64,000 nt of DNA from Verrucomicrobiota bacterium (GCA_042565725.1 JBHORK010000003.1:10000-73999); one strand, 5' to 3'. Positions 15,394 to 59,820 are shown, numbered from the stretch's first letter. Made by a program: numbers and translations. The notes: generated by a model not told the origin, from the sequence alone.

Positions 15394-16492
15394 TTCGTGG
15401 GTTGGCGGACTTGCCACGTATGAGCCGGGCCGTCCCATAGAAGAAGTGGCGCGCGAACTGGGATTTGAGAGTGCCGGTGAGATTATTAAACTTGCCTCAA
15501 ACGAGAATGCTCTTGGGCCGTCTCCTATGGCAGTTGAAGCTATCAGAAAACATGCTGCAGAAATGCACCGGTATCCTGATGGGGGAGCTTATTATCTGAA
15601 ACGGAAACTGGCCGAGAGACTTGATGTCAAACCGGAGCAATTGCTGCCTGCTAATGGAAGTAATGAGATTATTGAGCTCATGGCGCATGTTTTTCTGGGA
15701 CCGGACAATGGAATTGTTGTGGCTGATCAAGCCTTTGTCGTATATAGATTAATAGCAGAGTGTTTTCAGGCTGAAATTGTTTCGGTTCCTATGAAAAGAT
15801 TTACCCATGATCTTTCCGCTATGCTTGAGGCGATTAAGCCCAACTCCAGGATTGTTTTTATCAGTAATCCTAATAATCCAACAAGTACGATGGTGGGAGA
15901 ACAGGAAATAAATGATTTTATGAGCAAAGTTTCCGATGATATAATTGTGTGTTTTGATGAAGCTTACATTGAGCTTTTGCCTCCTGCTCAACAGCCGGAC
16001 ACTTTGAAGTTTGTTAAAGAAGGTCGTAATGTTGTTATTCTTCGAACATTCTCGAAGACATACGGTCTGGCCGGTTTGCGGATTGGCTACGCCGTTGCGG
16101 CAGAACCGTGCATATCATTGCTTAACAAAGTTCGTCAGCCTTTCAATGTCAATTCCATGGCTATGACTGCGGCAATAGCCGCTTTGGATGATGATAGTCA
16201 TGTAGGAAAAACACGTGAAATGGTGCAGGCGGGGCTTGCGTATCTACAGGGTGAATTCGAGGGAATGGGGCTTAATTTTGTGCCTGCTGTAGCCAATTTT
16301 CTTCTTGTTGAAGTTGGTTCAGGCCCTTCGGATCCCCTCAGGACAGGCAGGAAAGTGTTTGAAACCCTGCAAAAGGAAGGGATAATAGTAAGACCCATGG
16401 ATGTATATGGCTTGCCGGGGTTTATACGTGTAACGGTAGGGACGGAAGAGGAAAATACACGCTTTATTAAGGCTTTTAAAGCTCTGATTTAA
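15368..16492 (+). CDS. hisC: Histidinol-phosphate/aromatic aminotransferase
   Basis: YEPGRPIEEV, KLASNEN, NPNNPT, DEAY, RTFSKTYGLAGLRIGY. Confidence 0.95.
   Translation: MTNFPQTANSWVGGLATYEPGRPIEEVARELGFESAGEIIKLASNENALGPSPMAVEAIRKHAAEMHRYPDGGAYYLKRKLAERLDVKPEQLLPANGSNEIIELMAHVFLGPDNGIVVADQAFVVYRLIAECFQAEIVSVPMKRFTHDLSAMLEAIKPNSRIVFISNPNNPTSTMVGEQEINDFMSKVSDDIIVCFDEAYIELLPPAQQPDTLKFVKEGRNVVILRTFSKTYGLAGLRIGYAVAAEPCISLLNKVRQPFNVNSMAMTAAIAALDDDSHVGKTREMVQAGLAYLQGEFEGMGLNFVPAVANFLLVEVGSGPSDPLRTGRKVFETLQKEGIIVRPMDVYGLPGFIRVTVGTEEENTRFIKAFKALI
16324..16347 (-). mobile_element. 24-bp CCTG-type micro-element inserted in frame in hisC
   Basis: cccttcggatcccctcaggacagg adds PSDPLRTG between VEVGSG and RKVFE. 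Confidence 0.6.
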
Positions 16493-16520
16493 TAGTAGGC
16501 AATGGAAACAGCATAGCTGT

Positions 16521-16715
16521 TAAGCATAATTCGGAAATTGAACACTCAACATCCAACAAGGAATTTCCAATGTCCAAGTTTCGGAATTATTAGAGATTCA
16601 CTTTTTGGTTCTATTCATTTTCAAACATAGATTAAACGATTTTTGAAGGCTGTTTCTTACTCATTCATAATTGGATATTCCTTGTTGGATATTGGATATT
16701 CATATAAATTGCTTA
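16521..16715. repeat. Inverted-arm element, CCAACAAGGAAT family, copy 1
   Basis: Left arm tgaacactcaacatccaacaaggaatttccaatgtccaa, right arm ttggatattccttgttggatattggatattca. Confidence 0.85.
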
Positions 16716-16769
16716 TGCAGAATTGTTGGATTCATTTAGTTAAACCTTTGAGAGCTTAGAAACTGACAT

Positions 16770-17615
16770 ATGAAAAGACTTGCTATAATAGGTTTAGGAC
16801 TTATGGGTGGCTCTTTGGGGCTTGCCGTGAAAAAGAAAGGACTCGCCGAATCGGTATGCGGCTATGCCCGTCGTGAGGAAAACAGACGTGATGCCCTTAA
16901 GCAAGGTGTAGTTGATAGCGTTTGTGATCGGCCCGAAGATGCTGTTAAGGACGCGGATCTTGTCATATTCTGCGTTCCTGTGCTGGTTATTCCGGAATTG
17001 GTAAAGATTTGTAAGTCAAGTCTGATGGATAAATGTGTTGTAACCGATGTCGGCAGTACCAAAGCACATGTTGTTTCGGAGGTCTCAGCTTTGCTTGGGG
17101 ATAGTGCCGCTGAATTTATTGGGAGTCATCCCATGGCGGGTTCGGACCAAAATGGTTTGGATGCTGCAAGAATGGATTTGTACAATGATGCTATGGTGGT
17201 CATAACACCCAGTGGTTCTGTTGACGCAGAAACTGTAACGAAAGTAAAAGAGTTCTGGCAGTCTTTAGGCGCAGAGGTGGTCTCGATGGATCCAGAGAAG
17301 CATGACAGTATTATTGCAAGGACCAGCCATTTGCCTCACCTTGTTGCATCCATGCTTGTCAGCAACCTTGTCCGGGATAATGATCAGGAGATATGCAGGT
17401 TCTGTGGGTCTGGTTTCAGGGATACGACACGCATAGCCGGAGGATCAGAGGACATATGGCATGATATCGTGAAGACCAATAAGTTTTCCGTGGGTAGAGA
17501 GCTGGAAGAACTGGGGAAAATATTAAAACGTGTAAAAGCTATGATTGATAAAGATGATTTTGACGGGGTGCGTCGTTTTCTCGCTGAATGCCGTCACGTC
17601 CGTCGCGGATTGTAG
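16770..17615 (+). CDS. tyrA: Prephenate/arogenate dehydrogenase
   Basis: IIGLGLMGGSLG, TDVGSTK, GSHPMAGS, SHLPH, GSGFRDTTRIA. Confidence 0.95.
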   Translation: MKRLAIIGLGLMGGSLGLAVKKKGLAESVCGYARREENRRDALKQGVVDSVCDRPEDAVKDADLVIFCVPVLVIPELVKICKSSLMDKCVVTDVGSTKAHVVSEVSALLGDSAAEFIGSHPMAGSDQNGLDAARMDLYNDAMVVITPSGSVDAETVTKVKEFWQSLGAEVVSMDPEKHDSIIARTSHLPHLVASMLVSNLVRDNDQEICRFCGSGFRDTTRIAGGSEDIWHDIVKTNKFSVGRELEELGKILKRVKAMIDKDDFDGVRRFLAECRHVRRGL

Positions 17616-17695
17616 CATCCAATAGGATGCAGCCTATAGCCTGAACCGCTATAGTCTTTGCGTTCCTATGGGACGCTATTGTAAGAATATAAATT

Positions 17696-19036
17696 GTGAC
17701 TATTGATGATTCCAAAATTATTCGACCGTTTTCTTCCGAGCTTTGTGGGACTGTGCGGGTTCCGGGTGACAAGAGTATATCTCATCGGGCCGTCATGCTC
17801 TCAGCCGTCGCTTCGGGTGAATCTCTGATAGATAATTTCCTGCTGAGCGAGGACTGTCTTGACACACTTCATGCGGTAGAAAGCTTGGGCGTGTCTGTGT
17901 CCAGGGAGGACGTTAGAGTTAGGGTTAAAGGCTTGGGTGGCAAGTTAAGCGCGTCTGGCAGACAGCTTGATTTGGGTAATTCGGGTACGGGAATGCGTCT
18001 TCTAGCCGGATTGCTTGCCGGACAGAAATTCTCATGCGAAATGATGGGAGATGCTTCATTGTTGTCGCGCCCCATGCGGAGAATCAAAGAGCCTCTTGAG
18101 TTGATGGGTGCTAAGGTTGAACTGCTGGGCAGCCGCGAATGTGCGCCAATGCGGATAACCGGTGCAGATTTAGAGGGGATAGAATATAAATTGCCTGTGG
18201 CATCCGCCCAGGTTAAATCGTGTGTGCTTCTGGCAGGCCTTTTTGCGGAAGGCCAAACAACAATTGTTGAACCTGCTCCTTCTCGCGATCATACTGAAAG
18301 AATGCTTCGCGCTATGAATGCGGATATCGAAGTAGATGGACCCACTATTCGCTTGAAAGGTTCAGGGGGTAATCCTCTTTCTCTTAAGGCGGAAGAATGG
18401 ATTATTCCCGGCGATTTTTCTTCCGCAGCTTTCTGGATTACCGCGGCAGCGTGCAGGGAAGGTTCTGAGATAATAGTGGAGAATGTAGGACTTAACCCAA
18501 GGAGAATCGCGTTTCTTGGTGTTTTAGAGAGAATGGGGGCGGATATAGAAGCGATTGCGGATTGCGGATTGCGGAACGCGGAGTGGGAGCCGGTTGGAAA
18601 TATTACGGTGAAAGGGCGAAAGTTGAAAGGGACGGAGATCGGCGGGGAGGAGATACCCAATCTGATTGATGAGTTGCCGTTAGTTGCTGTTGCAGGAATA
18701 TTGGCTGAAGGAAAAACTGTTATTCGGGACGCGGCTGAACTGCGTGTCAAGGAGTCGGACAGAATTGCGACAATGGCCGCAGGTCTCTCGGCTCTTGGAG
18801 TCAAAGTTGAAGAAACCCCTGATGGAATGATAATTGAAGGAGGACAGGAAATCGCTGGTGATGCTCAGGTCGACAGTTGCGGAGATCACCGCATTGCAAT
18901 GGCGCTGGCAGTGCTGGCTCTCTTTGCGGTTGGACCAGTGCGGATTATGCGCACTGACTGTGTTGCAACGTCTTATCCGGGGTTCTGGGAAGAAATGAAG
19001 AAAATGATGAACGGAAGTCAGAGAGCTGAAAACTGA
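17696..19036 (+). CDS. aroA: 3-phosphoshikimate 1-carboxyvinyltransferase (class II EPSPS)
   Basis: PGDKSISHRA, GNSGTGMRL, SAQVKS, RDHTERML, IDELP, ELRVKESDR, DHRIAM. Confidence 0.98.
   Translation: MTIDDSKIIRPFSSELCGTVRVPGDKSISHRAVMLSAVASGESLIDNFLLSEDCLDTLHAVESLGVSVSREDVRVRVKGLGGKLSASGRQLDLGNSGTGMRLLAGLLAGQKFSCEMMGDASLLSRPMRRIKEPLELMGAKVELLGSRECAPMRITGADLEGIEYKLPVASAQVKSCVLLAGLFAEGQTTIVEPAPSRDHTERMLRAMNADIEVDGPTIRLKGSGGNPLSLKAEEWIIPGDFSSAAFWITAAACREGSEIIVENVGLNPRRIAFLGVLERMGADIEAIADCGLRNAEWEPVGNITVKGRKLKGTEIGGEEIPNLIDELPLVAVAGILAEGKTVIRDAAELRVKESDRIATMAAGLSALGVKVEETPDGMIIEGGQEIAGDAQVDSCGDHRIAMALAVLALFAVGPVRIMRTDCVATSYPGFWEEMKKMMNGSQRAEN
18553..18587 (+). repeat. In-frame GATTGCG heptamer array inside aroA
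   Basis: gattgcggattgcggattgcggaacgcggagtggg encodes IADCGLRNAEW. Confidence 0.85.
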
Positions 19037-19049
19037 ACGCTGAAACCTG

Positions 19050-19079
19050 CTTGTCCGCCATAGCCTTGGCGTTGGCGGG
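19050..19079 (+). mobile_element. CTTG-hairpin micro-element nested in a heptamer array at the aroA 3' end
   Basis: aaacctg|cttgtccgccatagccttggcgttggcggg|aaaccta. Confidence 0.7.
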
Positions 19080-19088
19080 AAACCTATT

Positions 19089-19757
19089 ATGTCTAATACT
19101 GTCATAACAATCGATGGCCCTTCCGCATCTGGGAAGTCGACAATCGCGCGGTGTGTTGCTGAGGAAAAGAAGGGCCTTATATACGTCGATTCAGGTTCAT
19201 TGTATCGTGGTGTTGCCTGGAAAGCATTGCATGAGCAAATTGATGCTGATGATATAGATGGCTTGACTAAATTATTGGACAATCTTGAAATTGAATTTTT
19301 TATAAATAATTGCGCTGTACAATTCCGGATTGATGGAAAGGAGTTGCGTGAAGAGCTCAGGACTGAGGCAGTTAATGAGGTTGTAAGTCCAATATCGGCC
19401 GTACCGGTGGTACGGTCTCGTGTGGTCTCGTGGTTGAGAGATATGATTCGTTTTGGTGATCTTGTTATGGAAGGCAGGGATATTGGTACGGCAGTTTTTC
19501 CTGAATCTAAGTTCAAGTTCTTTCTTGACGCTGATCCTGCAGAACGAGCCCGGCGGCGTTATACGGAAATGGCTCAGAGTGAAGATCAGGCAAGTATAGG
19601 TAAGGTAGAGGAATCTCTTAAACGCCGTGATATGATTGACAGTAATCGAGACATGGATCCTCTGAGAGTTCCGCCTGGTGCGGTAGTCGTTAATTCAACA
19701 TCAATGACAATTGACGAAGTTGTGAATTTTATAATAAAGAATATAGAGATGGTTTGA
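19089..19757 (+). CDS. cmk: Cytidylate kinase
   Basis: ITIDGPSASGKST, DSGSLYR, VMEGRDIGTAVFP, RD..DS.R..DPL. Confidence 0.97.
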   Translation: MSNTVITIDGPSASGKSTIARCVAEEKKGLIYVDSGSLYRGVAWKALHEQIDADDIDGLTKLLDNLEIEFFINNCAVQFRIDGKELREELRTEAVNEVVSPISAVPVVRSRVVSWLRDMIRFGDLVMEGRDIGTAVFPESKFKFFLDADPAERARRRYTEMAQSEDQASIGKVEESLKRRDMIDSNRDMDPLRVPPGAVVVNSTSMTIDEVVNFIIKNIEMV

Positions 19758-19784
19758 TAACATAGGGTTATATGAGGAATTTGC

Positions 19785-19990
19785 CCTGTAAACGGTTTTC
19801 GGTTGGGGTTGCGCGGCTGGAAACGTCATACCTGCCCGCAGTGCTACAGCGTTGCAGGCGGGCGGTTGAGGTTGCGTATTATAAAGGTTACAAGTTACAA
19901 GGGTTACAGAGGTTACAAGCAGGAAAAGAGATTACGCAACCGTTTGACGATAACCGATTCGAGCGGCGCAACCGATCAACGATGACCGTA
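19785..19990. repeat. Stack of short-repeat remnants including a CCTG hairpin (19831-19862) and a GGTTACA array (19885-19919)
   Basis: cctgcccgcagtgctacagcgttgcaggcggg; aggttacaagttacaagggttacagaggttacaag. Confidence 0.65.
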
Positions 19991-20205
19991 TTTGCCGGGG
20001 TAAATAGTTTTTTTATGTTTTTATTATTAATCGATTCAACAAAGTAAATAGATCCATATGTCTTCTGACACAATAATTGGCAGTATCATAGTAGTTGGAT
20101 CGCTTGTGCTTATTACAAGCCTCATAATATGGAGCCGCCGCACAATCAACAGGATAGCGAGCAGGGATCTTCGCTCTGCGCGCGAGATAGTGCAAGAGTT
20201 GAATA

Positions 20206-22500
20206 ATGGCCGATAAACATCAGATTTCCTCTGAATTGTCCCGTGAACTTTCCTTGTTTCACATCACTATGATGGGGCTTGGGATGATGATAGGCGCGGG
20301 TGTTTTTATTGGTATGGGAAACGCTATACTTCATGCCGGACCCGGCGGTGTTGTCCTCACCTTTGCTCTGAATGGAGTATTGGCTCTATTTACAGCAATG
20401 TCATACGCCGAATTAAGCTCAGCCATTCCAAGGGCGGGCGGTGCTTACAATTTTGCGCGTGTCGGGTTCGGGCGGGAAACAAGCTTCCTTGCCGGCTGGA
20501 TGGAATGGTTTGCGTCAAGTGTTGCAGGTAGTTTGTATGCTGTAACATTTGCCATTTACACAGTTCGTTTTCTCTCCGTTACTGGAGCGCTTGATCATGT
20601 AATTATTGACGTGTTTGATCTTGAAAAAATCGTTGCGGTAATTGTTGCTGCTTTTTTTATTTACATAAATTATCGAGGAGCTTCAGAGACCGGGCGTATA
20701 GGTGCTTTCTTTACATTAGGACAAACACTGTTTCTTGTCGTCATTGGTGTTGTCGGCATTGTTACGGTTGTTAAGGATCCATCGCGTCTCCAGAATTTTC
20801 AGCCATTTATGCCGGAAGGGTGGGGGAAACTCCTAATCACTATGGGTTTTACATACGTTGCCTTTGAGGGCTTTGAAGTAATAGCTCAAGCGGGCGATGA
20901 AGCTATTGACCCGCGGCGCAATTTGCCTAAGGCAATGTTGTATTCAGTTTTTATTGTTACTATTATTTATATAGTTGTGGCATTTGCGGCAGTGATTGCA
21001 GTTAAAGATGTCGGGACGGAACCTTGGAAGTGGATCGGGCAATTTAAGGAAAAAGGGTTTGGGGAAGCTGTTTCTCGACTGATGCCGGCAGGTAATTTGC
21101 TTCTTACACTTGCCGTAATTTTTGCGTCCACTTCAGCGTTGAATGCCACCATCTACTCCGCCACCAGAGCATCGTACGCTCTTGGCCGCGATCGTATGCT
21201 GCCGTCTTTCTTTGCGAAAATATCAAAAACAAGGAAAACACCCTGGGTGGCATTGTTGTTTACAGGATTAATTATAATCATAATAGCAACGGTTCTGCCC
21301 ACAATGGATGTTGCTTCCAGCGCCAGTATAATGTTTCTGTTTCTCTTCTTCCTGGTCAATCTATGCGTAATAAAAATACGCAGGAATATGAGTGATGAAC
21401 TTACCTATGGCTTCATAATGCCGTTTTTCCCGCTTTTCCCCATTGTAGCCATTATTGGTCAGGTAATTCTTGCGGCATGGCTTGTTCATATGAGTGTGAT
21501 AGCCTGGATTGTGGCGCCGGTGTGGATATTATCCGGAGCGTTGATCTATAGGTTGTACTCAAAATCACGTGTTGAAACAAGTGAACATGAAATATTGGTT
21601 TTTGAAGAAGAAAAAGCACCTGAAGGCAGCGAATACAAGATTATGGTCGCAGTAGCCAATCCGGACAATGCGCTTAACATGATCAGACATACGTATACCC
21701 TTTGTGCTGTTAAAGATGCGCGTGTTGAAATCCTTCATATGGTACCTGTTCCAGACCAGGTTCCTCTGTCCGATGCTGGTCTTTATATGCTTGAAGGTAA
21801 AGAGGCTGTTACGGAGACTATGCTTTATCTGGCTCCTCAATTTCCTTCAAGCTCAACGATACGTTACTGTCGAAATGTTGCGCGAGGAATAGTGAGTGCT
21901 GCCCGCGAAAAGAAAGCAGATATGTTGATAATAGGTTGGCGCGGTTCTTCAGCGGCGTTTCCGGATTCACCGAGGGCAAGTGGAAGAGGATTTGTGCTTG
22001 GCAGTACTGTCGATCCGGTTGTGGAGAGGGTCCCCTGTAATGTGGTGGTTCTGAAAAACTGTCAGGATCAGAAATTTAAACATATTTTAGTACCGGTAGC
22101 CGGCGGACCAAACAGCGCGTTTGCTTTCGAAATTGCCGGCGTCCTTGCTGAAAAAAATGCAGGGAAAATCACCGCCTTTACAGTTGGTTCTGGAGAAAGA
22201 ATCGAACGGTTTGATATCGAGGAGTTTGTTGAGAATAATATGGAGAAAATTTCTTTGCCGCGAACCAGGATTAATATCAAGATTTCAAATAAGTCCGATG
22301 TCGTATCATCAATTCTGAAAGAAATTGATAATGAGAAGGAAGAATATGATCTGGTGGTAATGGGATATACGCGTCAGTCACAACTGCGCAGAATGAGAAG
22401 AGCGTCAGCTCCGGAATCAGTCGCAAGATTGTGTTCCAAGCCTTTTGTCATGGTCAAAGCATCCGGAGGTATTAAGTCGTGGGTCAAAAGATGGATGTAA
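20206..22500 (+). CDS. APC-family amino acid permease fused to two C-terminal universal stress protein domains
   Basis: GMMIGAGVF, SYAELSSAIPRAGGAY, about 12 hydrophobic segments, then IMVAVANP and ILVPVAGGPNS USP starts, LGSTVDPV. Confidence 0.9.
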   Translation: MADKHQISSELSRELSLFHITMMGLGMMIGAGVFIGMGNAILHAGPGGVVLTFALNGVLALFTAMSYAELSSAIPRAGGAYNFARVGFGRETSFLAGWMEWFASSVAGSLYAVTFAIYTVRFLSVTGALDHVIIDVFDLEKIVAVIVAAFFIYINYRGASETGRIGAFFTLGQTLFLVVIGVVGIVTVVKDPSRLQNFQPFMPEGWGKLLITMGFTYVAFEGFEVIAQAGDEAIDPRRNLPKAMLYSVFIVTIIYIVVAFAAVIAVKDVGTEPWKWIGQFKEKGFGEAVSRLMPAGNLLLTLAVIFASTSALNATIYSATRASYALGRDRMLPSFFAKISKTRKTPWVALLFTGLIIIIIATVLPTMDVASSASIMFLFLFFLVNLCVIKIRRNMSDELTYGFIMPFFPLFPIVAIIGQVILAAWLVHMSVIAWIVAPVWILSGALIYRLYSKSRVETSEHEILVFEEEKAPEGSEYKIMVAVANPDNALNMIRHTYTLCAVKDARVEILHMVPVPDQVPLSDAGLYMLEGKEAVTETMLYLAPQFPSSSTIRYCRNVARGIVSAAREKKADMLIIGWRGSSAAFPDSPRASGRGFVLGSTVDPVVERVPCNVVVLKNCQDQKFKHILVPVAGGPNSAFAFEIAGVLAEKNAGKITAFTVGSGERIERFDIEEFVENNMEKISLPRTRINIKISNKSDVVSSILKEIDNEKEEYDLVVMGYTRQSQLRRMRRASAPESVARLCSKPFVMVKASGGIKSWVKRWM

Positions 22501-22507
22501 GAAGACG

Positions 22508-22627
22508 ATAAATTATGAATTATGAATGATGAATGTAGAGCAGGGATGCGGAAAGGAAGCAAATAATCAAAAGGGAAGGTTGATCCGAATTCTTTTATTC
22601 AGCATTTATCATTTATCGTTTATCATT
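22508..22627. repeat. Inverted heptamer element (ATGAATT / TTATCAT family)
   Basis: Left arm ataaattatgaattatgaatgatgaat, right arm attcagcatttatcatttatcgtttatcatt. Confidence 0.75.
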
Positions 22628-22635
22628 CTCTTCGC

Positions 22636-22664
22636 TTGACACTTAATAACACTGTGTGTAGATT
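22636..22664 (+). promoter_or_regulatory. sigma70-type promoter of infA
   Basis: TTGACA-17 nt-TAGATT. Confidence 0.6.
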
Positions 22665-22702
22665 CGAATCAAATATTAAAGCCGGTAAGCAAGGAAGTAT
22701 TA

Positions 22703-22924
22703 ATGCCTAAAAATGACGCAATAGAAGCGCTAGGAACCGTTGTAAAGGTTTTACCCGCAACCATGTACACGGTGCGTCTTGAAAATGGTCACGAGCTTCT
22801 TGCTCATATATCCGGAAAAATGCGGAAAAACTTCATAAAGATTACTACGGGCGACAAAGTAACTCTTGAAATCTCACCTTACGACCTTTCCAAGGGTCGT
22901 ATTACTTATAGACACAAGAATTGA
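22703..22924 (+). CDS. infA: Translation initiation factor IF-1
   Basis: [40 protein letters not shown]. Confidence 0.99.
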
Positions 22925-23020
22925 ACGTCGAACATTGGACATTGAACGTTCAACATCGAAGCATGAGAGAAAATCAGGACTTTCGAAGTTCGAAGTTGAG
23001 TGTTCGATGTTGGAAGTTTA
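22921..23020. repeat. Inverted heptamer element, AACATCG family, empty copy
   Basis: Left arm gaacgtcgaacattggacattgaacgttcaacatcgaa, right arm ttcgaagttcgaagttgagtgttcgatgttggaagtt, spacer of about 20 nt containing an ATG. Confidence 0.85.
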
Positions 23021-35630: not shown

Positions 35631-35660
35631 CCTGTCCTCCGTAGCCTTGGCGAAGGGGGA
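35631..35660 (+). mobile_element. CCTG-hairpin micro-element nested in an ATGGTTG heptamer array
   Basis: atggttaatggttgatggttga|cctgtcctccgtagccttggcgaaggggga|tggttgatg. Confidence 0.75.
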
Positions 35661-38561: not shown

Positions 38562-38772
38562 AATTCTAAGCACTAAACCCTAAATTCTAAACAATCCGCC
38601 GTTGCCAAGGCTATGGCGGGACAAGATTTCAATGATCTAAATTCAAATGCTCAAAACGCAGAGAATGCTCAGAAGTGCAGATCTGCAAGTATTGGCACCA
38701 AATGTTTTGATTATTTGAACATTAGAATTTAGGATTTGTTTAGAAATTATATATTAGATATTAGGATTTCGC
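38562..38772. repeat. Long inverted heptamer element (CTAAATT / AATTTAG family) with a nested hairpin micro-element at 38595-38625
   Basis: Left arm aattctaagcactaaaccctaaattctaaacaa...ctaaattcaaatgctcaaaac, right arm gttttgattatttgaacattagaatttaggatttgtttagaa...attaggattt. Confidence 0.85.
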
Positions 38773-41881: not shown

Positions 41882-42811
41882 ATGAATTTACCAGCAATAA
41901 TAGATAACCCTGAAGTTGCTGAAATAGTACGCCGGGCCTTGAAAGAAGACATCGGGGCGGGCCCTGCACCAGAGCAAGCACGATGCAGGGCAGGTGATAT
42001 AACTACCAATGCGATTATCCCTGAATCTGCGATCGCAAAGGCGGCTATTGTTTCGCGCGGCGCGTATGTTCTGGCAGGGATTGATGTGGCGCGAATGGTT
42101 TTTTCAGAAGTTGATTCCGGGATTCAATGCAAAACTGATATTAACGATGGGCAGGGTGTAAAAGCGGATCAAGGCGTAATGACCATAGAGGGCCCTGCGC
42201 GTGGAATTCTTACAGGTGAACGGACGGCTCTTAATTTCGTGCAGAGAATGACCGGTATAGCTACGCTTACAAATCAGTTTGTTGAAAAGGTCAAAAAATA
42301 CGGAGTTGTCATCCTCGATACACGCAAGACAACTCCGGGTCTTCGCGTATTGGAAAAATATGCAGTGCTGTGCGGCGGCGGTGTGAATCACAGAAATGGA
42401 CTGTATGACAGAGTCTTGATAAAGGATAATCATCTTCGGATTGCGGATTGCGGATTGCGGATTGCGGAAAGAGGGGAAGGGAACGCGGATTGCGGATTGC
42501 CGATTGCGGATTGTATAAAAAAGGCGAAAGATCTGAATCCGGGGGTTATTATTGAGGTGGAGGTGGAGAATGAGAAAGAGCTGGAGGATGCTCTAAAGGG
42601 CCGTCCTGATTGGGTTTTGCTCGATAATATGCCGCCTGAGCAATTGAGGCGATGTGTGGATATTTGTGCTGGCAGAGCGAAACTTGAGGCATCCGGCGGA
42701 ATAACACTCGAGAATGTCGAAAAAATAGCCCAAACCGGAATTAACGCTATATCGCTGGGCTGTCTGACACATTCGGCGCCGGCATCAGATTTTTCATTGG
42801 AAATTATTTAA
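41882..42811 (+). CDS. nadC: Nicotinate-nucleotide pyrophosphorylase carrying two in-frame repeat-derived insertions
   Basis: ALKEDIG..GDITT, ILTGERTALNF, LDTRKTTPGLR, LIKDNH, EVEVE, LLDNM, LEASGGIT. Confidence 0.97.
   Translation: MNLPAIIDNPEVAEIVRRALKEDIGAGPAPEQARCRAGDITTNAIIPESAIAKAAIVSRGAYVLAGIDVARMVFSEVDSGIQCKTDINDGQGVKADQGVMTIEGPARGILTGERTALNFVQRMTGIATLTNQFVEKVKKYGVVILDTRKTTPGLRVLEKYAVLCGGGVNHRNGLYDRVLIKDNHLRIADCGLRIAERGEGNADCGLPIADCIKKAKDLNPGVIIEVEVENEKELEDALKGRPDWVLLDNMPPEQLRRCVDICAGRAKLEASGGITLENVEKIAQTGINAISLGCLTHSAPASDFSLEII
41962..41994 (-). mobile_element. 33-bp CCTG-hairpin micro-element inserted in frame in nadC
   Basis: ccctgcaccagagcaagcacgatgcagggcagg; removing it restores EDIGAGDITT. 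Confidence 0.8.
42437..42513 (+). repeat. In-frame GATTGCG heptamer array inside nadC
   Basis: (gattgcg)x4 ... gaacgcg gattgcg gattgcc gattgcg gattgt encodes RIADCGLRIAERGEGNADCGLPIADC. Confidence 0.9.
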
Positions 42812-46313: not shown

Positions 46314-46379
46314 CTTGTAACTTGCCTGCCCCTCCGTAGCTTCCGAGCGAAGGGGGGTAACCCCTGTAACTTGTAACTT
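46314..46379 (+). mobile_element. CCTG-hairpin micro-element (46325-46357) nested in a CTTGTAA array
   Basis: cttgtaacttg|cctgcccctccgtagcttccgagcgaagggggg|taacccctgtaacttgtaactt. Confidence 0.75.
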
Positions 46380-52085: not shown

Positions 52086-52093
52086 CCATTCCT

Positions 52094-53104: not shown

Positions 53105-53200
53105 ATATCCAATATCCAACAAGGAATATCCAATTCCCAAGTGAAGATTCCAATAGATCCGTTGGATGTTGGACATTCCTTGTTGGATATTGAGTGTTCA
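53104..53200. repeat. Inverted-arm element, CCAACAAGGAAT family, copy 3
   Basis: Left arm aatatccaatatccaacaaggaatatccaattcccaa, right arm ttggatgttggacattccttgttggatattgagtgttca. Confidence 0.85.
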
Positions 53201-53300
53201 GTTTTCCACCAAATGGGTACTGGCTGAGGTATTTGGTGCCGATACTACAGAGAGGATGTCTCAATGAATAATGTCAACAGTAGAACAGTTGAATTGCTTT

Positions 53301-54971
53301 TTACTCCTCATCGTCCTCTGCAGCCTCAGCGTCTAACTCACTTTCATCCGATTTCTCGGTCAGGTCTTTGAACTCAGCCTGATCAAGCATGTAATCATTC
53401 CATCCCGCAAGCATGAGCTCAGCACGATATTTGGATAATGTGGAAGCAAATTCCGGCCTGATAAATTCTTTTGTTGAAGCATCTCCCGGTTGTCTGTCCT
53501 GCACGAACGCCAGGAGGGCACCGTCCTCTATCATGGTGATTTCGGCAAGTTCTCCTTTTCCATGCGTAATAATATTAGGAATGATTTCATTGTAATATTC
53601 CATTTCCTGCGTCCAGGCTTCATACGCTGTGAATGTGACTGTTGTTGTAACGTTGAGCTTGATTTTGTGAAGTGAATCTTCGAACGATTTTTCAGCCTGC
53701 AGGGATTCTGTTAGCGCTTTTTGCATTTCATTGATCTTCTCTGTAAACGCCTCGCTTTCGGCTTTTTGTTTTACAAAAGGCATCACATCGTCTTTTACTT
53801 CGTCAAAATCAGGGATATGTGCTTTTTTCTTTTCACCCGCGGCGATTACGTATACGGAGTTTGAGCCAACCAGGGGATCACTGAAATATCGGTCTGGGTC
53901 ATCAGGATCGAGAGAAAATGCTGTGGCGACAAAGTCAGGACCCACTTCGAGTTTGGGTACTTCCTCGGAAGCCGAGAAAAAATCGCTTGTATGTATTGCG
54001 AAATTGAGATTGTAAGCAACTTTATCGAAATCAAGGGCGTTGCCGTAGCGGTCGGGCATAAGTCTTTTAACGAATTCAGCGGCTTTGTTGTTTGCGTTAT
54101 AAAGTGCATGTTGATACTGAACCATATCAATTATTTCCTCACGCACTTCTTCAAATGGTGTTGTTAGCGATTCATCATTGGTGTTTATGGTTGAATACTC
54201 TTCGAGATGTTCTGAATAGTAATCCAATAATTCGTTTTCTTCGATCTCTACTTTTGACAGGTAGTCTGAGATTGGGATTTCGACATAGCGGACATTAATT
54301 GTATCCGGCACAGTAAAGTATTCTTTATTTTCCTCGAAGAATTCTCTGACATCTTTTTGGGAAACTTTTACTTTCTTGACGTGATCATCAGATTTCAGAA
54401 GTACATATTGTATGGTAAAGGAATCGGTCAAATCCTTTATTTTTTCGTGCAGTTCGAACGGAGAGACCCAGACAGCGGTTTCCAGCATCATGAGCAACTT
54501 TTGGAATGTTAATTCCTGATGTATGAATTCTTCAAATGCGGGTATGGTCGTTCTTCTTACTCTGTTGACATAATCTTTGTATTTTAATTCATTAAAGATG
54601 CCTTGTTCAGAGAAATAGGGGTTATTTTGTATTACTTCGACAACTTCTTTGTCCTTGACTGTGATGCCCATTCTTTCTGCGGTCTTCAAGGCAACAAGTC
54701 TTTGCCATGTTTGTTTTTTGATAAGTTTATCCGTTTCCGGATCTGCATTGTCAATGTCACGCATTCCGAGGGCGTAGAACCTCGCATTCCAGAATTCGCG
54801 GGCAGATATATCTTCACCGAACAATATACCGACCGTATCTCCGGTTTTTCCCTTCTGATCTCGGTTCAAGCCTGGTGAAAAAGCAAACACGAATACGACA
54901 GCCACCACTACAGCGAAAAAGCCCAATAGCAGTTTACTGCGAATCAATTTGTTGAATTTTGTGATCAGCAT
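53301..54971 (-). CDS. PpiD/SurA N-terminal-domain periplasmic chaperone
   Basis: N-terminal membrane anchor, A.RMGITV.D.EV, FSEQGIFN...Y, FFEENKEYF.VP....V.YV, PFEEVREEI. Confidence 0.8.
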   Translation of the reverse strand: MLITKFNKLIRSKLLLGFFAVVVAVVFVFAFSPGLNRDQKGKTGDTVGILFGEDISAREFWNARFYALGMRDIDNADPETDKLIKKQTWQRLVALKTAERMGITVKDKEVVEVIQNNPYFSEQGIFNELKYKDYVNRVRRTTIPAFEEFIHQELTFQKLLMMLETAVWVSPFELHEKIKDLTDSFTIQYVLLKSDDHVKKVKVSQKDVREFFEENKEYFTVPDTINVRYVEIPISDYLSKVEIEENELLDYYSEHLEEYSTINTNDESLTTPFEEVREEIIDMVQYQHALYNANNKAAEFVKRLMPDRYGNALDFDKVAYNLNFAIHTSDFFSASEEVPKLEVGPDFVATAFSLDPDDPDRYFSDPLVGSNSVYVIAAGEKKKAHIPDFDEVKDDVMPFVKQKAESEAFTEKINEMQKALTESLQAEKSFEDSLHKIKLNVTTTVTFTAYEAWTQEMEYYNEIIPNIITHGKGELAEITMIEDGALLAFVQDRQPGDASTKEFIRPEFASTLSKYRAELMLAGWNDYMLDQAEFKDLTEKSDESELDAEAAEDDEE

Positions 54972-55042
54972 AATGAAATATCCGATTCAGTGTAGGATTA
55001 TGATCCCCTCGGTATGTGTGTGAAACGATATAATAAACGTTA

Positions 55043-56065
55043 TTATCTTACATATCGCTTTCCGATAGGGGTAGGGGATGGAGCGGTTTGAAATGCCATG
55101 AGAGTTCCTTTGTCATCTTCGGGGAGAGTGGTCGTGGTCGTGGTTGTAGTAGTGGTCGATCTGACGGTTATTACCGGCCATCCTGCGCCAACTACAATTT
55201 CCGCTACCTGTTCGTCTTCAGTTTTTCCTTCCTCGTCCAGTTTTTCTTCGGGTTTCTCCTCATCTTTTCCGGCAACAGCAATTTCTTTACGGAACCGCAG
55301 CGCTGGTAGTATAGCTGTACCGTCAGGCGCTACAGGTATAATAGCTACCAGTATTGCGTCACCTGATTCTGACAAGCTGGTGAATATTCTTATTAAAGAG
55401 CCTTCTTCCATCTCTTTGGTGACAACCTCTTCTGGAGTCTTCAGGTTGATTTCATATTTCCCCTTCTCATCAGCCACCTTAGTGTAAGTTCTGTCAAAGG
55501 TTGATCCCACTGATACAGATTCATTCTCTTCTAATACAGGGATTTCAAAATATGGATTAAACACTTTCATGTCACCCTTTTCACACATGATCATTACGAC
55601 CCTCATATCGGGTTCGGTCATGACATTTATAGTGAAGCTGCCGCCGGTTGATTCACATACTACTGTTGAAGACTCGACGTTAAGGCGGTTCCCTGTTTGA
55701 TCTTGGTAACTCTTTTCCAGGAGTACTTTGATTTTCCCTTCATCAAGTAGAATTTTTTTGAGTTTTGAGTCTTTGGCGTCTTCAGCTATTACGAAGGAGC
55801 TGTTAGGAGAAACTTCAAACTCATTGTCGGAATTAAGCTGAATTGAAATTGATGATTCCGGACCTGTTTTGATTCTGGTCCCGTAGGGATATCTTTTGTC
55901 ACGCTCGGCTTTTATTTCGCTGGAGGCACCAGGCAGTCTTACAAAACACCTGCCTTCAATTTCCTTTATTACTATTAGCCGATCAAAAGAACCCGCTGAT
56001 AACGTATTGCTAGAAAGAAGCATTATGCACAAAGTTATTAATATACCAGAAATGAGCGTCTTCAT
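55043..56065 (-). CDS. Secreted FecR-like beta-domain protein with Thr-rich C-terminal tail
   Basis: Signal peptide, IKTGPESS..I.L.....F.V.PNS.F pattern, poly-T tract near the C-terminus. Confidence 0.55.
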   Translation of the reverse strand: MKTLISGILITLCIMLLSSNTLSAGSFDRLIVIKEIEGRCFVRLPGASSEIKAERDKRYPYGTRIKTGPESSISIQLNSDNEFEVSPNSSFVIAEDAKDSKLKKILLDEGKIKVLLEKSYQDQTGNRLNVESSTVVCESTGGSFTINVMTEPDMRVVMIMCEKGDMKVFNPYFEIPVLEENESVSVGSTFDRTYTKVADEKGKYEINLKTPEEVVTKEMEEGSLIRIFTSLSESGDAILVAIIPVAPDGTAILPALRFRKEIAVAGKDEEKPEEKLDEEGKTEDEQVAEIVVGAGWPVITVRSTTTTTTTTTTLPEDDKGTLMAFQTAPSPTPIGKRYVR

Positions 56066-56175
56066 ATTTTTAATCCTCCAGAATAAGTATTAATTGTATT
56101 AAATGATAAACCATTGCGAGTACAAAAGTCAAGCTTATATGTAGCGCGGTTAATGAGCTTCTTTAAGAAGTCCTG

Positions 56176-57450
56176 TCAGTTGGCCGCTTCTGTTACGGCT
56201 AAGAGATCCAGGTCATTGTTTGAGGTTCCCTGGAAAAGCAGTGAGCCGTCTTCATTAAATATACTTATTATAACACCATGCAGAGCAAGTCCGCTCTTAG
56301 TTGATGAAGAGGCGTAATCATAGTAATAAGAAGATACGTATTGCGATGATGACTTCTTGAATGATACTGGTGAGAAGTCGATATAGATTCGGTCTGACGA
56401 TATTTTTTCCAGCTTAATGGTTTTCTTTTCGGCTTCCGTAGGTTTGATTTTTCCTTTTGCGCCCACCGGCTTGCTGAAGTATTGAACAACGATTCTTGGG
56501 TTCTCGAAGGTTATGTCGCTGCTGGTTGACCGCAGTTCCAGCCTAACAAAATGTGATATGACGCCGCTTTGTGTTTTGTAAATTGAATAGTCGCTGTGAG
56601 ATGTTGATTTCGTATCAGACGTCGATGCCTGCATTACGGTACAGGAGACTTTACGGATTAGACGGGCGGTTTTTGTCGGTTTAAAAGATGTTTTTGCGAA
56701 ATGTATATCGGGAGTTTTCGGAGGGCGGGAGTCATATATTTCGAAATCCGATTTTTTGTTTTGGGGTTTGCTGGATGTTTCTCTTGCCTCTCTGTCACGT
56801 TTCCTCTGTTCTTTTTTTGTCAATTTCTCAGGTTCGTCCTTAGTGCCCGGGGGCGTTTTCTTTTTCGGCGTCGCCTCCTCGGGTTTTAAGTGTTGAGCTT
56901 CGTACTCAGCTATGGTGAATTCAGCAACAGTGATGTCAGAGTGAGATTTGACAGAGTCTGCCTCTTTCTTGATCTCAATCGCTTCTTCTATTTTGCCCTG
57001 CTTTGTCAAATCCTTCTGCATACCAGTAAGGTGCGTAATGTATTTTTCTGTTAAATCAAGTATCTCTTTGCTCTTTTCTATCTCAAGGCCTGACGATGCC
57101 TGGAAGTAGGTTTTCTGAAGAGAACGAAGTGAGGCAGGTTTTTCAACAATGGCTTTTTTCGGTAGTTCCTTGTTCTTCTCAAACCTTTTTACTTCCTTAT
57201 CCACCGCAACCCAGCCTTCAAGGTCTCCGGACTCTCGCGTTTTTTCGAGAAGCACTGTCAAAGCTTTCTGGTATTGCACAGGCCAGCTTATAGCTTTTTG
57301 CGTGTATTCTGCTTTGATCTTATTGAGAGATCCAGCGAAAATTGCTTTAGCGGAGGTTAGTGAACTTTTGCCTTTATCTGCGGCAAACATGACAAGAGGG
57401 CAGATCAGGCAGACAGATATAATAAATAATGGTTTTTTGTAGCTTTTCAC
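56176..57450 (-). CDS. Secreted hypothetical protein (helical N-terminal domain, charged linker, beta-rich C-terminal domain)
   Basis: 424-aa ORF with signal peptide; no family recognised. Confidence 0.7.
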   Translation of the reverse strand: MKSYKKPLFIISVCLICPLVMFAADKGKSSLTSAKAIFAGSLNKIKAEYTQKAISWPVQYQKALTVLLEKTRESGDLEGWVAVDKEVKRFEKNKELPKKAIVEKPASLRSLQKTYFQASSGLEIEKSKEILDLTEKYITHLTGMQKDLTKQGKIEEAIEIKKEADSVKSHSDITVAEFTIAEYEAQHLKPEEATPKKKTPPGTKDEPEKLTKKEQRKRDREARETSSKPQNKKSDFEIYDSRPPKTPDIHFAKTSFKPTKTARLIRKVSCTVMQASTSDTKSTSHSDYSIYKTQSGVISHFVRLELRSTSSDITFENPRIVVQYFSKPVGAKGKIKPTEAEKKTIKLEKISSDRIYIDFSPVSFKKSSSQYVSSYYYDYASSSTKSGLALHGVIISIFNEDGSLLFQGTSNNDLDLLAVTEAAN

Positions 57451-57520
57451 ACTGCCATGCTAATTCTGCTGTCGAAGAAGTCAAGCCTTTAACACAGGGA
57501 GGAAATTGCGCTGTTAAGAG

Positions 57521-57583
57521 ATTTTAGACGGGATCAACAGAATAACAGGCGGGTAGGCACGAATCCCGCTATGCGGGGCAGGC
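57521..57583. repeat. Nonamer arm followed by a CCTG-hairpin remnant
   Basis: attttagacgggatcaacagaataacagg ... aatcccgctatgcggggcagg. Confidence 0.55.
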
Positions 57584-57595
57584 GAAATACGTTAT

Positions 57596-58726
57596 TTATG
57601 GCGTTGAAATTCGAGGTAGAATAACCGAAAAAGTTGTGCCTTTATTGACTTCAGACGTTACCCCAATGTCTCCTTTGTGATCCCTGATGATGCCCCTGGA
57701 GATTGAGAGCCCCAACCCGGTGCCTTCGCCTTTTTCTTTTGTTGTGTAGAATGACCCGAATATTCCCTCAAGCTGATCAGAAGGTATGCCTGTTCCCGTG
57801 TCTGACACATCGCATTTCCAGCAATTCACATTGTTATACTTGCATGTCCCAATTTTGAGCCGAAGTTCTTTTCTTTCACGATCGGCCATAGCGTCACAGG
57901 CATTACCGATGAGATTGACAAAAACCTGTTCCATATGATTGGGACAGCCGGTTATCATGTGTTTACCTTTTTTAACTTCATTATGAACTTTTACATTTGT
58001 TTTCTGGATCTTGTTATTAATTATAAACAAAGCATCCGCAATACTGTTGTAAAGGTCAACCGGTTCGTATTTCTCGGCTATGCCGCGCGAAAAGTTTCTT
58101 AAATGATCGGCAAGTTTCTGGATAGATTTAGACGCTCTCTCGATATCCTTTGCAAAGGTCAGAAGACGCTGTAGGTCAGTGTCATTGTCTTTTTCTATAA
58201 GGCTTAATTCCCTGAGCATCATTTCGTTTGAGAGCAGAATAACAGTTAACGGGTTGTTGATGTCATGCGCGACACCGGAAGAAAGTTCTCCAATAGCGGC
58301 CAGCCGGCCCGAATGAGCCAGGCTTCTCTGAAGTTCTTTAACATTTCTGATATCTCTCAGAATTGAAAACGTGCGTATAAAATTACCATCATCATCGTAA
58401 ATACCGAAAGACCTGATTTCAACGGGTATTATTGTGCCGTCTTTAGTCTTTAACAGGCTTTCGGGAATCAGCTTGTCGCCGCGTTCCTTAAGGTCCGTGA
58501 AACCCTTTTCGACGTCATGCATGACTTCGTTGGCATAGATATCACGGATATTCATGGATAGTAATTCGTCGTGAGTGTATCCTAGAAGTGATTCGGCGGT
58601 TTTATTAGCATAGACGATGTTGCCATTTTCGTCTATTGAGTGGATTATATCAGGGAAACTGTCCAGCAGTATCTTGAATATATTCGCGTTACTAATCTCA
58701 ATCTCATGTATTCGCATTTTAGTCAT
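57596..58726 (-). CDS. Cytoplasmic PAS-domain sensor histidine kinase (NtrB-like)
   Basis: PAS (IVYANKTAESLLGY), GELSSGVAHDINNPL H-box, QVFVNLIGNACDA, DTGTGIP, FYTTKEKGEGTGLGLSI. Confidence 0.95.
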   Translation of the reverse strand: MTKMRIHEIEISNANIFKILLDSFPDIIHSIDENGNIVYANKTAESLLGYTHDELLSMNIRDIYANEVMHDVEKGFTDLKERGDKLIPESLLKTKDGTIIPVEIRSFGIYDDDGNFIRTFSILRDIRNVKELQRSLAHSGRLAAIGELSSGVAHDINNPLTVILLSNEMMLRELSLIEKDNDTDLQRLLTFAKDIERASKSIQKLADHLRNFSRGIAEKYEPVDLYNSIADALFIINNKIQKTNVKVHNEVKKGKHMITGCPNHMEQVFVNLIGNACDAMADRERKELRLKIGTCKYNNVNCWKCDVSDTGTGIPSDQLEGIFGSFYTTKEKGEGTGLGLSISRGIIRDHKGDIGVTSEVNKGTTFSVILPRISTP

Positions 58727-58747
58727 AACAGAATAAATCTTACGTGG

Positions 58748-59572
58748 TTATTTCGAACTGTGTAATAACATGTTTTCCGTGGCAGCGTGTGTTTCCGGGA
58801 AAAGCTTTCTGGCATCCTCAACAATACTCTCAATGTCTTTGTCTTTCCTGACCGGTTCGTGATGGGTCAGGACAAGCTTTTGGACTTTTGCTTCAATGGC
58901 GGCCCGAACTGCGACCTTCCACGTGCTGTGTCCCCATCCGCTATGTGAAAGATATTCTTTCGGTGTGTACTGAGCGTCAAATATAAGGCAATCGGCGGTG
59001 GCACAAAAATTAATGAAAGCTGGATCAATGTCATCTTCTCTGTATTCTACGTCTGTTGCTATTACAATGTCCTTGCCGGGCATATTTACGCGGTACGCGA
59101 TGCAGCCCTGGGGGTGGGGTACCCTGAACCATGATATTTCGATTCCGTAAAGATTGAGACTGCATTTATCAGCAGGAAGATCAACAAGGTTCATTGCCGC
59201 ATCAGTTTCTGCAAGACCCACAGGCCAGTAAGGTTTGCCGACGATGGTTTTGAGCGTCTTTTTCCAATCATCATCCCGTTCGGGATCTGCCATTATCTGT
59301 ATATTGGCTTTTTTATTGTACAGCGGTGCAAAACTTGGCAGACCAATAAGATGATCCATGTGGAAATGGGTAAAAAGCATTGTTATAGGAAGCGGTTGAG
59401 GTTGATTAGAAAGAGTTTCCGCGGCGAATGAAATTCCTGTCCCGGCATCAAAGATAATATTTCCGGTGTCGGTATTGACTGTAAAACATGATGTATTGCC
59501 TCCGTAGACACGATATGCTTCACCAAAGGCTGGCATAGTCCCTCGAGCCCCTCTTATCATGAATTCATGCAT
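58748..59572 (-). CDS. Metallo-beta-lactamase-fold hydrolase (phosphodiesterase-like)
   Basis: GARGTMP, YGGNTSC, FDAGTGI, THFHMDHLIGLP, HPQG, DAQYT..EY....GWGHST, HHEP. Confidence 0.92.
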   Translation of the reverse strand: MHEFMIRGARGTMPAFGEAYRVYGGNTSCFTVNTDTGNIIFDAGTGISFAAETLSNQPQPLPITMLFTHFHMDHLIGLPSFAPLYNKKANIQIMADPERDDDWKKTLKTIVGKPYWPVGLAETDAAMNLVDLPADKCSLNLYGIEISWFRVPHPQGCIAYRVNMPGKDIVIATDVEYREDDIDPAFINFCATADCLIFDAQYTPKEYLSHSGWGHSTWKVAVRAAIEAKVQKLVLTHHEPVRKDKDIESIVEDARKLFPETHAATENMLLHSSK

Positions 59573-59579
59573 CAGAGAA

Positions 59580-59608
59580 ATCCTAGAATCTCAACCTGCC
59601 TTTGTCAA
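59580..59608 (-). promoter_or_regulatory. sigma70 promoter placing the start site at the MBL-hydrolase ATG (leaderless candidate)
   Basis: Minus strand TTGACA-17-TAGGAT-7 nt-ATG. Confidence 0.6.
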
Positions 59609-59633
59609 TGAGGAGAATTTACGCTGCAAGACT

Positions 59634-59820
59634 TTTTTAGACAGGATCAACTGGATCAACAGGATGTTTCGCGCTTCCGCCTTCGCTCTGCAAGCTACAG
59701 CGGACAGGTCGCGCGAATTGAAGTGCTCCAGAGGCTTTCGCCCTTGGTCGACGTGTACGGGGTCAATTCTGTTGTCTTCTCCTCTCCTTAATCATGTTCA
59801 TCCTGTAAATCCTGTCAAAA
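59634..59820. repeat. Inverted nonamer element (ACAGGATNA) with nested CCTG-hairpin micro-element at 59676-59708
   Basis: Left arm ttttagacaggatcaactggatcaacaggat, right arm aatcatgttcatcctgtaaatcctgtcaaaa, inner tccgccttcgctctgcaagctacagcggacagg. Confidence 0.8.

Follow-up and report, generated by a model that had tools for sequence, protein, structure and literature searches.

What are the very short hairpins that break into repeat arrays and genes of a Verrucomicrobiota bacterium, and what puts them there? The question is raised by a 64,000-nt stretch of its genome (GCA_042565725.1, JBHORK010000003.1:10000-73999, or G000:C137:10000-73999 in our numbering; hereafter the window), which belongs to an assembly of 2.96 Mb in 203 contigs that is 73% complete. 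A first-pass annotation of the window had noticed five close copies of a unit that begins with CCTG or CTTG and continues into a hairpin, and had proposed a minimal non-autonomous element that prefers the arrays as targets. Very small mobile repeats are known, among them REP, SDR and the Rickettsia palindromic elements (RPE), and for most of these the mover and the rules of insertion are unsettled. We find that the unit, here called the CYTG family, is very probably non-autonomous mobile DNA. On balance, we lean towards the explanation that it is a family of tiny hairpins that are pasted in whole and moved in trans, possibly by an HUH-type enzyme.

A two-tier hairpin with an unpaired tail

All five close copies lie where the annotation had placed them. 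DNA folding gives them a common structure, in which a 4-nt tail, CYTG, stays unpaired beside a two-tier hairpin made of a GC-rich outer stem of 6-7 bp, a 3x3 internal loop (RTA on the 5' side, GAN on the 3' side) and an inner stem-loop. The inner hairpin varies in sequence while its pairing is kept, begins and ends with GC, and measures 8-11 nt in the five copies. The consensus first proposed has, in its literal form with a single N, no match at up to three mismatches, because the stretch written as N is the variable inner hairpin. The length of the unit is tightly held: in a search by structural rule, 136 of 153 copies (38 from this genome, 115 from elsewhere) are exactly 30 nt long, and relatives of the 30-nt unit range from 20 to 41 nt.

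The canonical copy at 19050..19079 (+) reads CTTG, TCCGCC, ATA, GCCTTGGC, GTT, GGCGGG (nhmmer E 5e-06; DNA fold -7.5 kcal/mol, z -2.66). Located between aroA and cmk, this copy falls within a CTGAAAC-type array and follows ..CCTG. A second canonical copy, at 35631..35660 (+; E 1e-07), stands in register within an ATGGTTG array, as ..ATGGTTGA, copy, TGGTTGATG.. The copy at 38595..38625 (-) is 31 nt long (CTTG + TCCCGCC..GGCGGA) and occupies a TTTAGRR array, and that at 46325..46357 (+) is 33 nt long (CCTG, CCCCTCC, GTA, GCTTCCGAGC, GAA, GGGGGG) and occupies a GTAACTT array. In all four cases, the heptamer array is split by the copy and resumes in register on its other side. The fifth copy (59676..59708, -; 33 nt) is flanked by the inverted arms TTCGCGC/GCGCGAA and has a 9-mer array alongside. 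These contexts, seen by reading the flanks, are those that the annotation had described.

Across the genome, the 22-nt 5' core occurs 43 times at no more than one mismatch, and a reversed-pattern control not once. A profile built from 136 thirty-nt copies and scanned over the genome, as the annotation had suggested, gives 147 matches at E <= 10, 111 at E <= 1 and 86 at E <= 0.1, so that the family has 86-111 profile matches here. The 11-mer alone is a weak signal in the window, with three found against 0.68 expected.

Single-copy fold energies are unremarkable in part, given that three of the five close copies are no stabler than their shuffles (z 0.07, -0.71 and -1.23). The structural case is therefore one of covariation and not of energy. 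It was assembled from at least 119 genome matches to a degenerate 30-nt pattern that allows every combination at two stem pairs; the 119 matches listed comprise 56 distinct sequences. Among these 119, the stem columns 5-30 hold C-G 37 times, T-A 72, T-G 9 and C-A once, the stem columns 8-27 hold G-C 71 times, T-A 35, G-A 13 and T-C never, and the unpaired loop columns 11-24 hold G.A 86 times, A.C 15, A.A 16 and G.G 2. The same column-pair behaviour is found in 31 viral copies. In this genome there are 18 different outer-stem pairs, and the third inner pair (C-G 23, T-A 10, G-C 2, and A-T, T-G and A-G once each) is pairable in 37 of 38 copies. The nine T-G against one C-A at columns 5-30 suggest that the CYTG strand is the folded one.

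Some of these features would also suit a small stable RNA that is copied into nicks by a reverse transcriptase, which might build the heptamer arrays as well. The G.A / A.C / A.A covariation in the loop fits a sheared non-canonical pair, and such pairs are best known from RNA (isostericity rules); the G-T wobbles are strand-specific, and the association with heptamer arrays is constant. We nevertheless consider an RNA intermediate unlikely. Rfam covariance models matched nothing in the window at gathering score, and the surroundings of one copy yielded only E values of 5 or worse. Intergenic copies have no preferred orientation relative to tandem neighbour genes (21 sense, 18 antisense), and copies within genes are mostly antisense (16 against 6), so that the mRNA would carry the complement. 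The exact insertion pairs described below are free of tails, target duplications and 5' truncations.

Filled and empty sites

The evidence for mobility comes from sites that exist both with and without the unit. We counted as empty any contiguous look-alike of the joined flanks elsewhere in the genome, at 85% identity or more and with at least 11 nt on each side, and such a look-alike exists for 37 of 111 copies. When nine filled/empty pairs were compared base by base, eight proved exact: the insert consists of tail plus hairpin, no target bases are duplicated and none are lost. Two window copies are included. The copy at 38595 has an empty paralogous site at C88:30689-30734 (C numbers denote contigs of this genome) and a filled paralogue at C148:33408, and C158:7140 is the occupied counterpart of the copy at 59676, with a second copy inserted at the GT^AG of the outer one (^ marks the point of insertion). 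The remaining exact pairs involve C187:3789, C130:5814, C117, C115, C118 and a tRNA-Cys remnant that is filled at C33:43844 and empty in two sister remnants. Together with the arrays that resume in register and the orthologues that lack the insert, these junctions sustain the annotation's proposal of a non-autonomous micro-element and answer its call for precise junctions and empty sites.

Two points count against a simple history of independent insertions. One pair (C11 versus C99) is inexact, with 3 nt that differ, and several copies share their flanks, so that some must have spread as passengers of larger repeats. It is conceivable that all did, and that the hairpin spreads only within array blocks, the nonamer palindrome or array-hairpin-array units, by the transposition or recombination of these. 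Long flanks are indeed common to the 38595 copy and C148:33408, the copies at C130:3615, C55:38273 and C144:15717 share flanks of a GAGGGMT array and GAAACCTG, and a separate family at 19831, described below, has common flanks too. In the paralogue pairs, however, both members have the larger repeat, and what varies between them is the hairpin; copies also occur at unique sites, such as nadC and the D-loop of the tRNA-Cys remnant, and flanks at the 119 loci listed from other genomes are unrelated except where nested. We therefore think it very unlikely that passive carriage is the whole explanation.

The composite at C55:38273 (larC), C144:15717 (nadA) and C130:3615 (a PQQ protein) has the same order each time: a GAGGGMT array, GAAACCTG, the hairpin and AGACCTGAG. 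Array and hairpin may be travelling as a unit here; alternatively, the array may be mobile in its own right, as a first tier.

The filled and empty pairs also bear on the possibility that the hairpin is not mobile at all and is a functional motif under selection, be it a terminator, an RNA-stability element or a protein-binding site. Strong sequence conservation across phyla would fit such a motif, as would the excess of intergenic copies at convergent over divergent gene pairs (14 against 6, where the background is 256 to 231). Yet copies lie inside coding sequences, arrays and each other, they have no fixed orientation to genes, and related genomes hold anything from 0 to 70 of them. Selection without mobility is already largely refuted by the nesting context and the filled/empty pairs, and we assign it hardly any probability.

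Target choice and nesting

Among 86 copies, 17 lie inside another copy, 16 adjoin 7-periodic sequence, 2 are set between palindromic flanks and 51 fall in other contexts, a class that includes weaker arrays. The 16 copies that pass the 7-periodicity test compare with 40 of 5000 random positions (0.8%), an enrichment that upholds the preference for arrays first proposed. Array overlap was scored with a lag-7 measure, since TRF at score 30 under-counted short arrays (4 of 38).

The target is short and loose, about CC[G/T]N^[A/T]G. The flank logo (C, C, G/T, N ^ A/T, G, C) is alike for 38 copies in this genome and 115 copies in other phyla, and the commonest junctions are GA^AG, GT^AG, GG^AG, TG^AG and CT^TG. 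C is the commonest base at target positions -4 and -3 (55% and 63% in this genome, 44% and 49% in others). Self-nesting follows from this target, given that the element's own internal loop (GT^AGC) and apical loop (CCT^TGG) supply it, and self-nesting sites are mostly GT^AGC or CCT^TGG. In one set, five identical inner copies of the ACC..GGT type lie within the apical loops of five diverged outer copies. Array nesting follows likewise, because the phase of insertion is fixed and supplies the target: CTG^A in CTGANNC arrays, TTGA^TGG in TGGTTGA arrays and CG^TGAAGC in GTGAAGC arrays.

Targets differ between subfamilies. Units of the TCC..GGA type insert at N^AG, those of the ACC..GGT type at CT^TG in six of six cases, and those of the CCC..GGG type at G^N. 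Covariation of tail position 2 with the flanks is weak (0.086 bit with position -1).

Copies inside genes

Twenty-two of the 111 copies are found in open frames that run for at least 60 codons on both sides. Pfam was run on ten of the 22. A family match spans the canonical copy in NadA, LarC, Lnt, a Mur ligase and a GT2 protein, and in two further proteins the copy occupies a linker, between the domains of PriA and ahead of the domain of a Bac_transf protein. NadA has 15 extra residues, ten of them encoded by the copy, which are absent from 18 of 18 orthologues. Five of the six reading frames through the element are open, and the closed frame is on the sense strand only. It follows that copies can survive in frame in surface loops of housekeeping proteins, and the closed sense frame explains in part why antisense copies predominate within genes.

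The annotation had also named two coding insertions of 24 and 33 nt, multiples of three, and both are confirmed as in frame and as absent from 19 of 19 orthologues. The hisC insert (16324..16347, -; CCTGTCCTGAGGGGATCCGAAGGG on the minus strand) encodes the eight residues GPSDPLRT and is a short relative of the CYTGTCC..CGAAGGR type. It barely folds (-1 kcal/mol, with the folded stretch offset by 3 nt). The nadC insert (41962..41994, -) encodes 11 residues, AGPAPEQARCR, and consists of CCTG, CCCTGCA (a 7-bp stem), a 15-nt loop and TGCAGGG (-7.1 kcal/mol, z -2.27); it represents a side family with four relatives in the genome. For annotation, the unit matters in that it adds 8-15 residues to enzymes such as NadA, NadC, HisC, LarC and Lnt and yields spurious small open reading frames (ORFs).

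Hairpin copies occur in a further setting in three paralogous frames of about 1100 aa (C130:2365-5733, C130:15643-19032 and C66:29713-32988), which join a methyltransferase part to a PQQ/BamB-like beta-propeller. The linker is made up of hairpin copies and a recurring KGPAYGK-coding repeat. These frames may be fusions, or two genes read through.

Distribution across genomes, phyla and viruses

One to seven cores are present in 11 of 20 other genomes of the same order. In a sample of the phylum, 62 of 201 genomes have at least one core and 139 have none. The bursts within this sample reach 70 cores in a complete genome of 6.1 Mb (G216), 43 in the genome studied here, and 24, 16 and 14 in three more; the copy total of G216 is about 70-88.

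In the species-genome collection, the degenerate 30-mer was located in at least 119 stretches. Their record titles point to Verrucomicrobia/Opitutae, Kiritimatiellae, Lentisphaerae, Planctomycetes, Acidobacteria, Chloroflexi, Omnitrophota and Bacteroidetes, although some labels of metagenome-assembled genomes (MAGs) may be wrong. Further titles, with labels that are likewise partly uncertain, name Saccharibacteria and other groups of the candidate phyla radiation (CPR), several proteobacterial classes and a cyanobacterium; one cyanobacterial MAG has two copies of the 30-mer. Among cultured carriers, a strain of Cerasicoccus arenae has at least one. At the 119 loci listed, flanks are unrelated save where copies are nested or lie in arrays. 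The 30-mer is also found in 29 stretches (31 copies) of viral contigs, and two of the five multi-copy viral contigs are complete genomes with direct terminal repeats (DTR). A blastn search with a 30-nt query gave no match in 5,426 E. coli genomes, PLSDB plasmids or cultured phages. A literature search by keyword and sequence string, in a corpus that lacks most subscription journals and supplements, found no description of a CYTG 30-mer family.

Three copies from two or three genomes (L065, L071 and L079, all Victivallaceae / Lentisphaeria MAGs) have common flanks, ..cccttttttc on one side and aaaccttttaccggcatttatct.. on the other. Judged by these flanks, the shared context suggests a conserved locus or a larger repeat that holds the hairpin.

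The search for a mobilising enzyme

In the mechanism that we propose, the unit would be recognised as a folded single strand, namely the CYTG strand, and would be moved in trans by an enzyme that is not encoded beside it. Movement in trans by some unlinked function is, in our view, quite probable. As for its identity, our best guess would be a single-strand DNA nuclease-ligase of the HUH type, such as a Y1 transposase that works by 'peel and paste', though we hold this to be less likely than not. Part of the target choice may be encoded in the element, as in IS608, and phages that pick up copies could carry the element between lineages.

Several circumstantial points favour an HUH enzyme: the lack of target duplication, the exact ends, the strand-specific fold, the subfamily-dependent targets, and a Y1 match in all 11 genomes of the phylum sample with at least seven copies. 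Y1 matches also co-occur with the element more widely, in 36 of 62 carriers versus 38 of 139 non-carriers, with a naive odds ratio of 3.7 that treats kin as independent. By analogy, the GT^AG nesting hot spot echoes the cleavage of the GTAG motif of single-stranded REP by recombinant RAYT, which is reported in PMC3733652.

Gene neighbourhoods and gene content tie no such enzyme to the element, orientation says little, and the link to REP and IS200/IS605 substrates that the annotation had drawn is not shown by them. None of 30 RAYT-homologue loci in the phylum has a copy nearby, and a copy lies within about 1.5 kb at only 2 of 32 Y1 loci (30 in five high-copy genomes and 2 in this genome). This genome has four Pfam matches to Y1; none of its HUH genes adjoins a copy, and its two RAYT genes (C177 and C159) are flanked by different GTAG-REPs of their own. 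No Y1 match was found, with the query used, in 26 of the 62 carriers, all of which have six copies or fewer, and no Y1 is encoded in the five multi-copy viral contigs. The association with Y1 is confounded by relatedness and genome size, large mobilome-rich genomes holding more of everything. Nor do intergenic copies follow an orientation rule. In G216, 20 copies are on the plus and 16 on the minus strand before 2.98 Mb, and 15 and 37 after it (5 and 26 between 2.99 and 4.43 Mb). The switch is close to dnaA (at 3.2 Mb) and to the change in GC skew, but the bias is partial and mixed away from the switch, and the GC-skew samples are noisy.

Both RAYT loci have hairpins of their own kind. At C177:5610-6101, the gene for a RAYT of 163 aa precedes a tandem run of five 46-nt units, all with a GTAG-tagged hairpin (GTAG + CCGACG..CGTCGG); upstream of the gene are two related units. 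The arrangement is that of a classical REPtron and has no relation to the CYTG family. The second RAYT, at C159:39127-39507, likewise has its own flanking hairpins.

Another Y1 group, with proteins of about 350 aa bracketed by GGGGTCA-type inverted repeats, is present in two to three genes, at C164:1224-2288, C122:2809-3855 and C136:1-250. It fits the TIRYT class described in PMC3733652. The group is multi-copy in relatives (nine matches in G216, eight in another genome, G198). As a candidate mover it does no better than Y1 overall: it occurs in 70 of 201 genomes with no sharper association, and its absence from two of the 11 high-copy genomes, against presence in nine, counts against it.

IS91-type enzymes (Y2_Tnp) were considered because of their CTTG target and were also rejected. 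They are found in only 23 of 201 genomes; among the 11 high-copy genomes, two have an intact gene and a third a broken fragment, and G216 has none. Two IS91-family genes are present in this genome, at C197:6352-6849 and C145:9960-10466, and the ORF before the former ends in motifs that resemble a putative tyrosine recombinase. Searches of this 73%-complete genome for Rep_1 and Phage_GPA found neither, a weak result for Rep_1 in that its search matched no control genome either.

The suggestion that copies might flank a transposase gene failed for RAYT and Y1. As for the GIY-YIG nuclease genes that the annotation had also named, a degenerate copy is present within 500 nt at two of four small loci, in both cases in junk sequence made of tRNA remnants. 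More broadly, no gene recurs as a neighbour among the 119 loci listed, the largest cluster being 6 of 119.

Small GIY-YIG ORFs (frames of 114-134 aa) stand directly after tRNA genes (Cys-GCA, Ala-GGC and a third) at C33:43860-44680, C170:11330-12100 and C88:42560-43060. Behind each ORF, the 3' part of the tRNA is present a second time, and the tRNA remnants bear hairpin micro-insertions in the D-loop and the anticodon loop. From its arrangement, the unit resembles a homing or integrating GIY-YIG cassette with tRNA genes as its targets.

The lack of a linked gene is equally what one would expect if no dedicated transposase existed, and if ubiquitous activities of replication, repair or topoisomerases, for instance a type IA topoisomerase or template switching at stalled forks, copied or ligated the hairpin into single-stranded DNA. 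Such machinery, being ubiquitous, would account for one 30-mer that works in many phyla, where its consensus recurs, with 56 distinct sequences among the 119 matches listed. It would also suit the 26 carriers that lack a Y1 match and the copies in complete phage genomes without Y1. Type IA topoisomerases have a preference for C at -4, and C is the most frequent base at target positions -4 and -3. The distribution is patchy, however, with 139 of 201 phylum genomes devoid of the element and a few with bursts of 14-70, so that something non-universal seems to be required; the E. coli genomes, plasmids and cultured phages that gave no blastn match point the same way. The conserved unpaired bases resemble a protein recognition site, C at -4 is not preserved at the right end, and template switching at microhomology predicts one shared CCTG at the junction, whereas CCTG|CCTG is observed. 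We regard host machinery alone as an improbable mover, if less so than an RNA intermediate, and retain movement in trans by a dedicated enzyme.

Relation to known small mobile repeats

Among known systems, the SDRs of Cyanobacteria invite comparison first. SDR4-6 of Nostoc punctiforme and its relatives, which Elhai et al. reportedly described in 2008, are said to measure 21-27 nt, to share a hairpin fold, to nest in heptamer repeats and in each other, and to have been judged mobile with an unknown mover. Set beside them by description only, the CYTG family shares the hairpin fold, the nesting in heptamer arrays and in itself, and the evidence of insertion. It differs in its occurrence in a non-cyanobacterial genome, its length of 30 nt, its CYTG tail, its conserved internal loop, and its presence in many phyla and in viral contigs.

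REP and REPIN elements and the RAYT transposases are treated by Di Nocera et al. 2013 (PMC3733652) and Bertels & Rainey 2011 (PMC3116915). Like REPs, CYTG units are short imperfect palindromes with a fixed tetranucleotide tag at one end and many copies, some of them intragenic; intragenic REPs are reported for the verrucomicrobium Opitutus terrae. CGTC-tagged REPs likewise have no dedicated transposase according to PMC3733652. The differences are that the terminal tag is CYTG and not GTAG or CGTC, RTAG in the internal loop being a nesting site; that inverted doublets are lacking, with all seven pairs within 300 nt in the same orientation (0 of 7); that copies do not stand beside RAYT genes; and that the CYTG consensus is common to many phyla, whereas REPs are species-specific.

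With IS200/IS605 elements (IS608, ISDra2) and their ORF-less derivatives, the family has in common the lack of target duplication, the exact ends, the 4 nt 5' of the hairpin foot and a short specific target. The target preference that shifts with the subfamily is a further likeness, target choice in IS200/IS605 being DNA-guided. Unlike these elements, the CYTG unit consists of one hairpin and not of two different ends, measures 30 nt in all and has no linked tnpA, and the bias in replication strand is only partial in the one complete genome (G216).

The RPEs of Rickettsia are similar in that palindromic selfish DNA lies in frame in housekeeping genes and is tolerated as extra loop residues. 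RPEs are 100-150 bp long and lineage-restricted, whereas the CYTG unit has 30 nt and is cross-phylum. IS91 inserts 3' of CTTG or GTTC, and the nick site of pC194 and phiX174 is CTTG^A. The CTTG/CCTG tail and the frequent insertion just after ..CCTG or ..CTTG, and before A, recall IS91 and rolling-circle HUH enzymes, but Y2_Tnp is found in few genomes of the phylum sample (intact in 2 of the 11 high-copy ones).

By analogy, we place the CYTG family as a tagged relative of the REP and cyanobacterial SDR elements, with a candidate mover only. The surprising parts are its constancy across phyla and its unlinked mover. At its most ambitious, the proposal would be that the CYTG-tagged hairpin of 30 nt is a pan-bacterial transposon, which phages ferry and which a conserved, never-adjacent single-strand DNA enzyme moves in trans, with the tail and the first stem pair picking the target. 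This is speculative, and we would sooner expect parts of it to fail. If true, no smaller mobile element would be known that keeps a single consensus over many phyla; the family would be a third tag class beside the GTAG and CGTC palindromes, and it would offer a tractable system in which to find the missing mobilising enzyme.

The family is clean material in any case, with a fixed 30-nt unit whose unpaired bases are defined, exact filled and empty sites in one genome, and subfamilies with different targets. Bursts that include a complete genome, copies in complete phage genomes and the spread over many phyla add to its usefulness. Which enzyme moves the element, and how so short a sequence stays constant across phyla, both become questions within reach of oligonucleotide biochemistry and comparative genomics.

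Divergent relatives and other repeats in the window

The annotation had listed four more divergent relatives that begin with CCTG. Three of these are the hisC insert, the nadC insert as a member of its side family, and a miniature version at 57563..57582 (-). The last is a 20-nt hairpin (CCTG + CCCCGC ATA GCGGGA) that resembles CTTG-TCCCGC-loop-GCGGGA units elsewhere in the genome. The fourth, at 19831..19863 (+), belongs to a separate CCTG-hairpin family with eight copies at up to four mismatches and with shared flanks.

The nadC gene also contains an 11-unit CGGATTG heptamer array (42437-42513). Its translation (..IADCGLRIAERGEGNADCGLPIADC..) lengthens a variable loop by about 12 residues in comparison with 19 orthologues.

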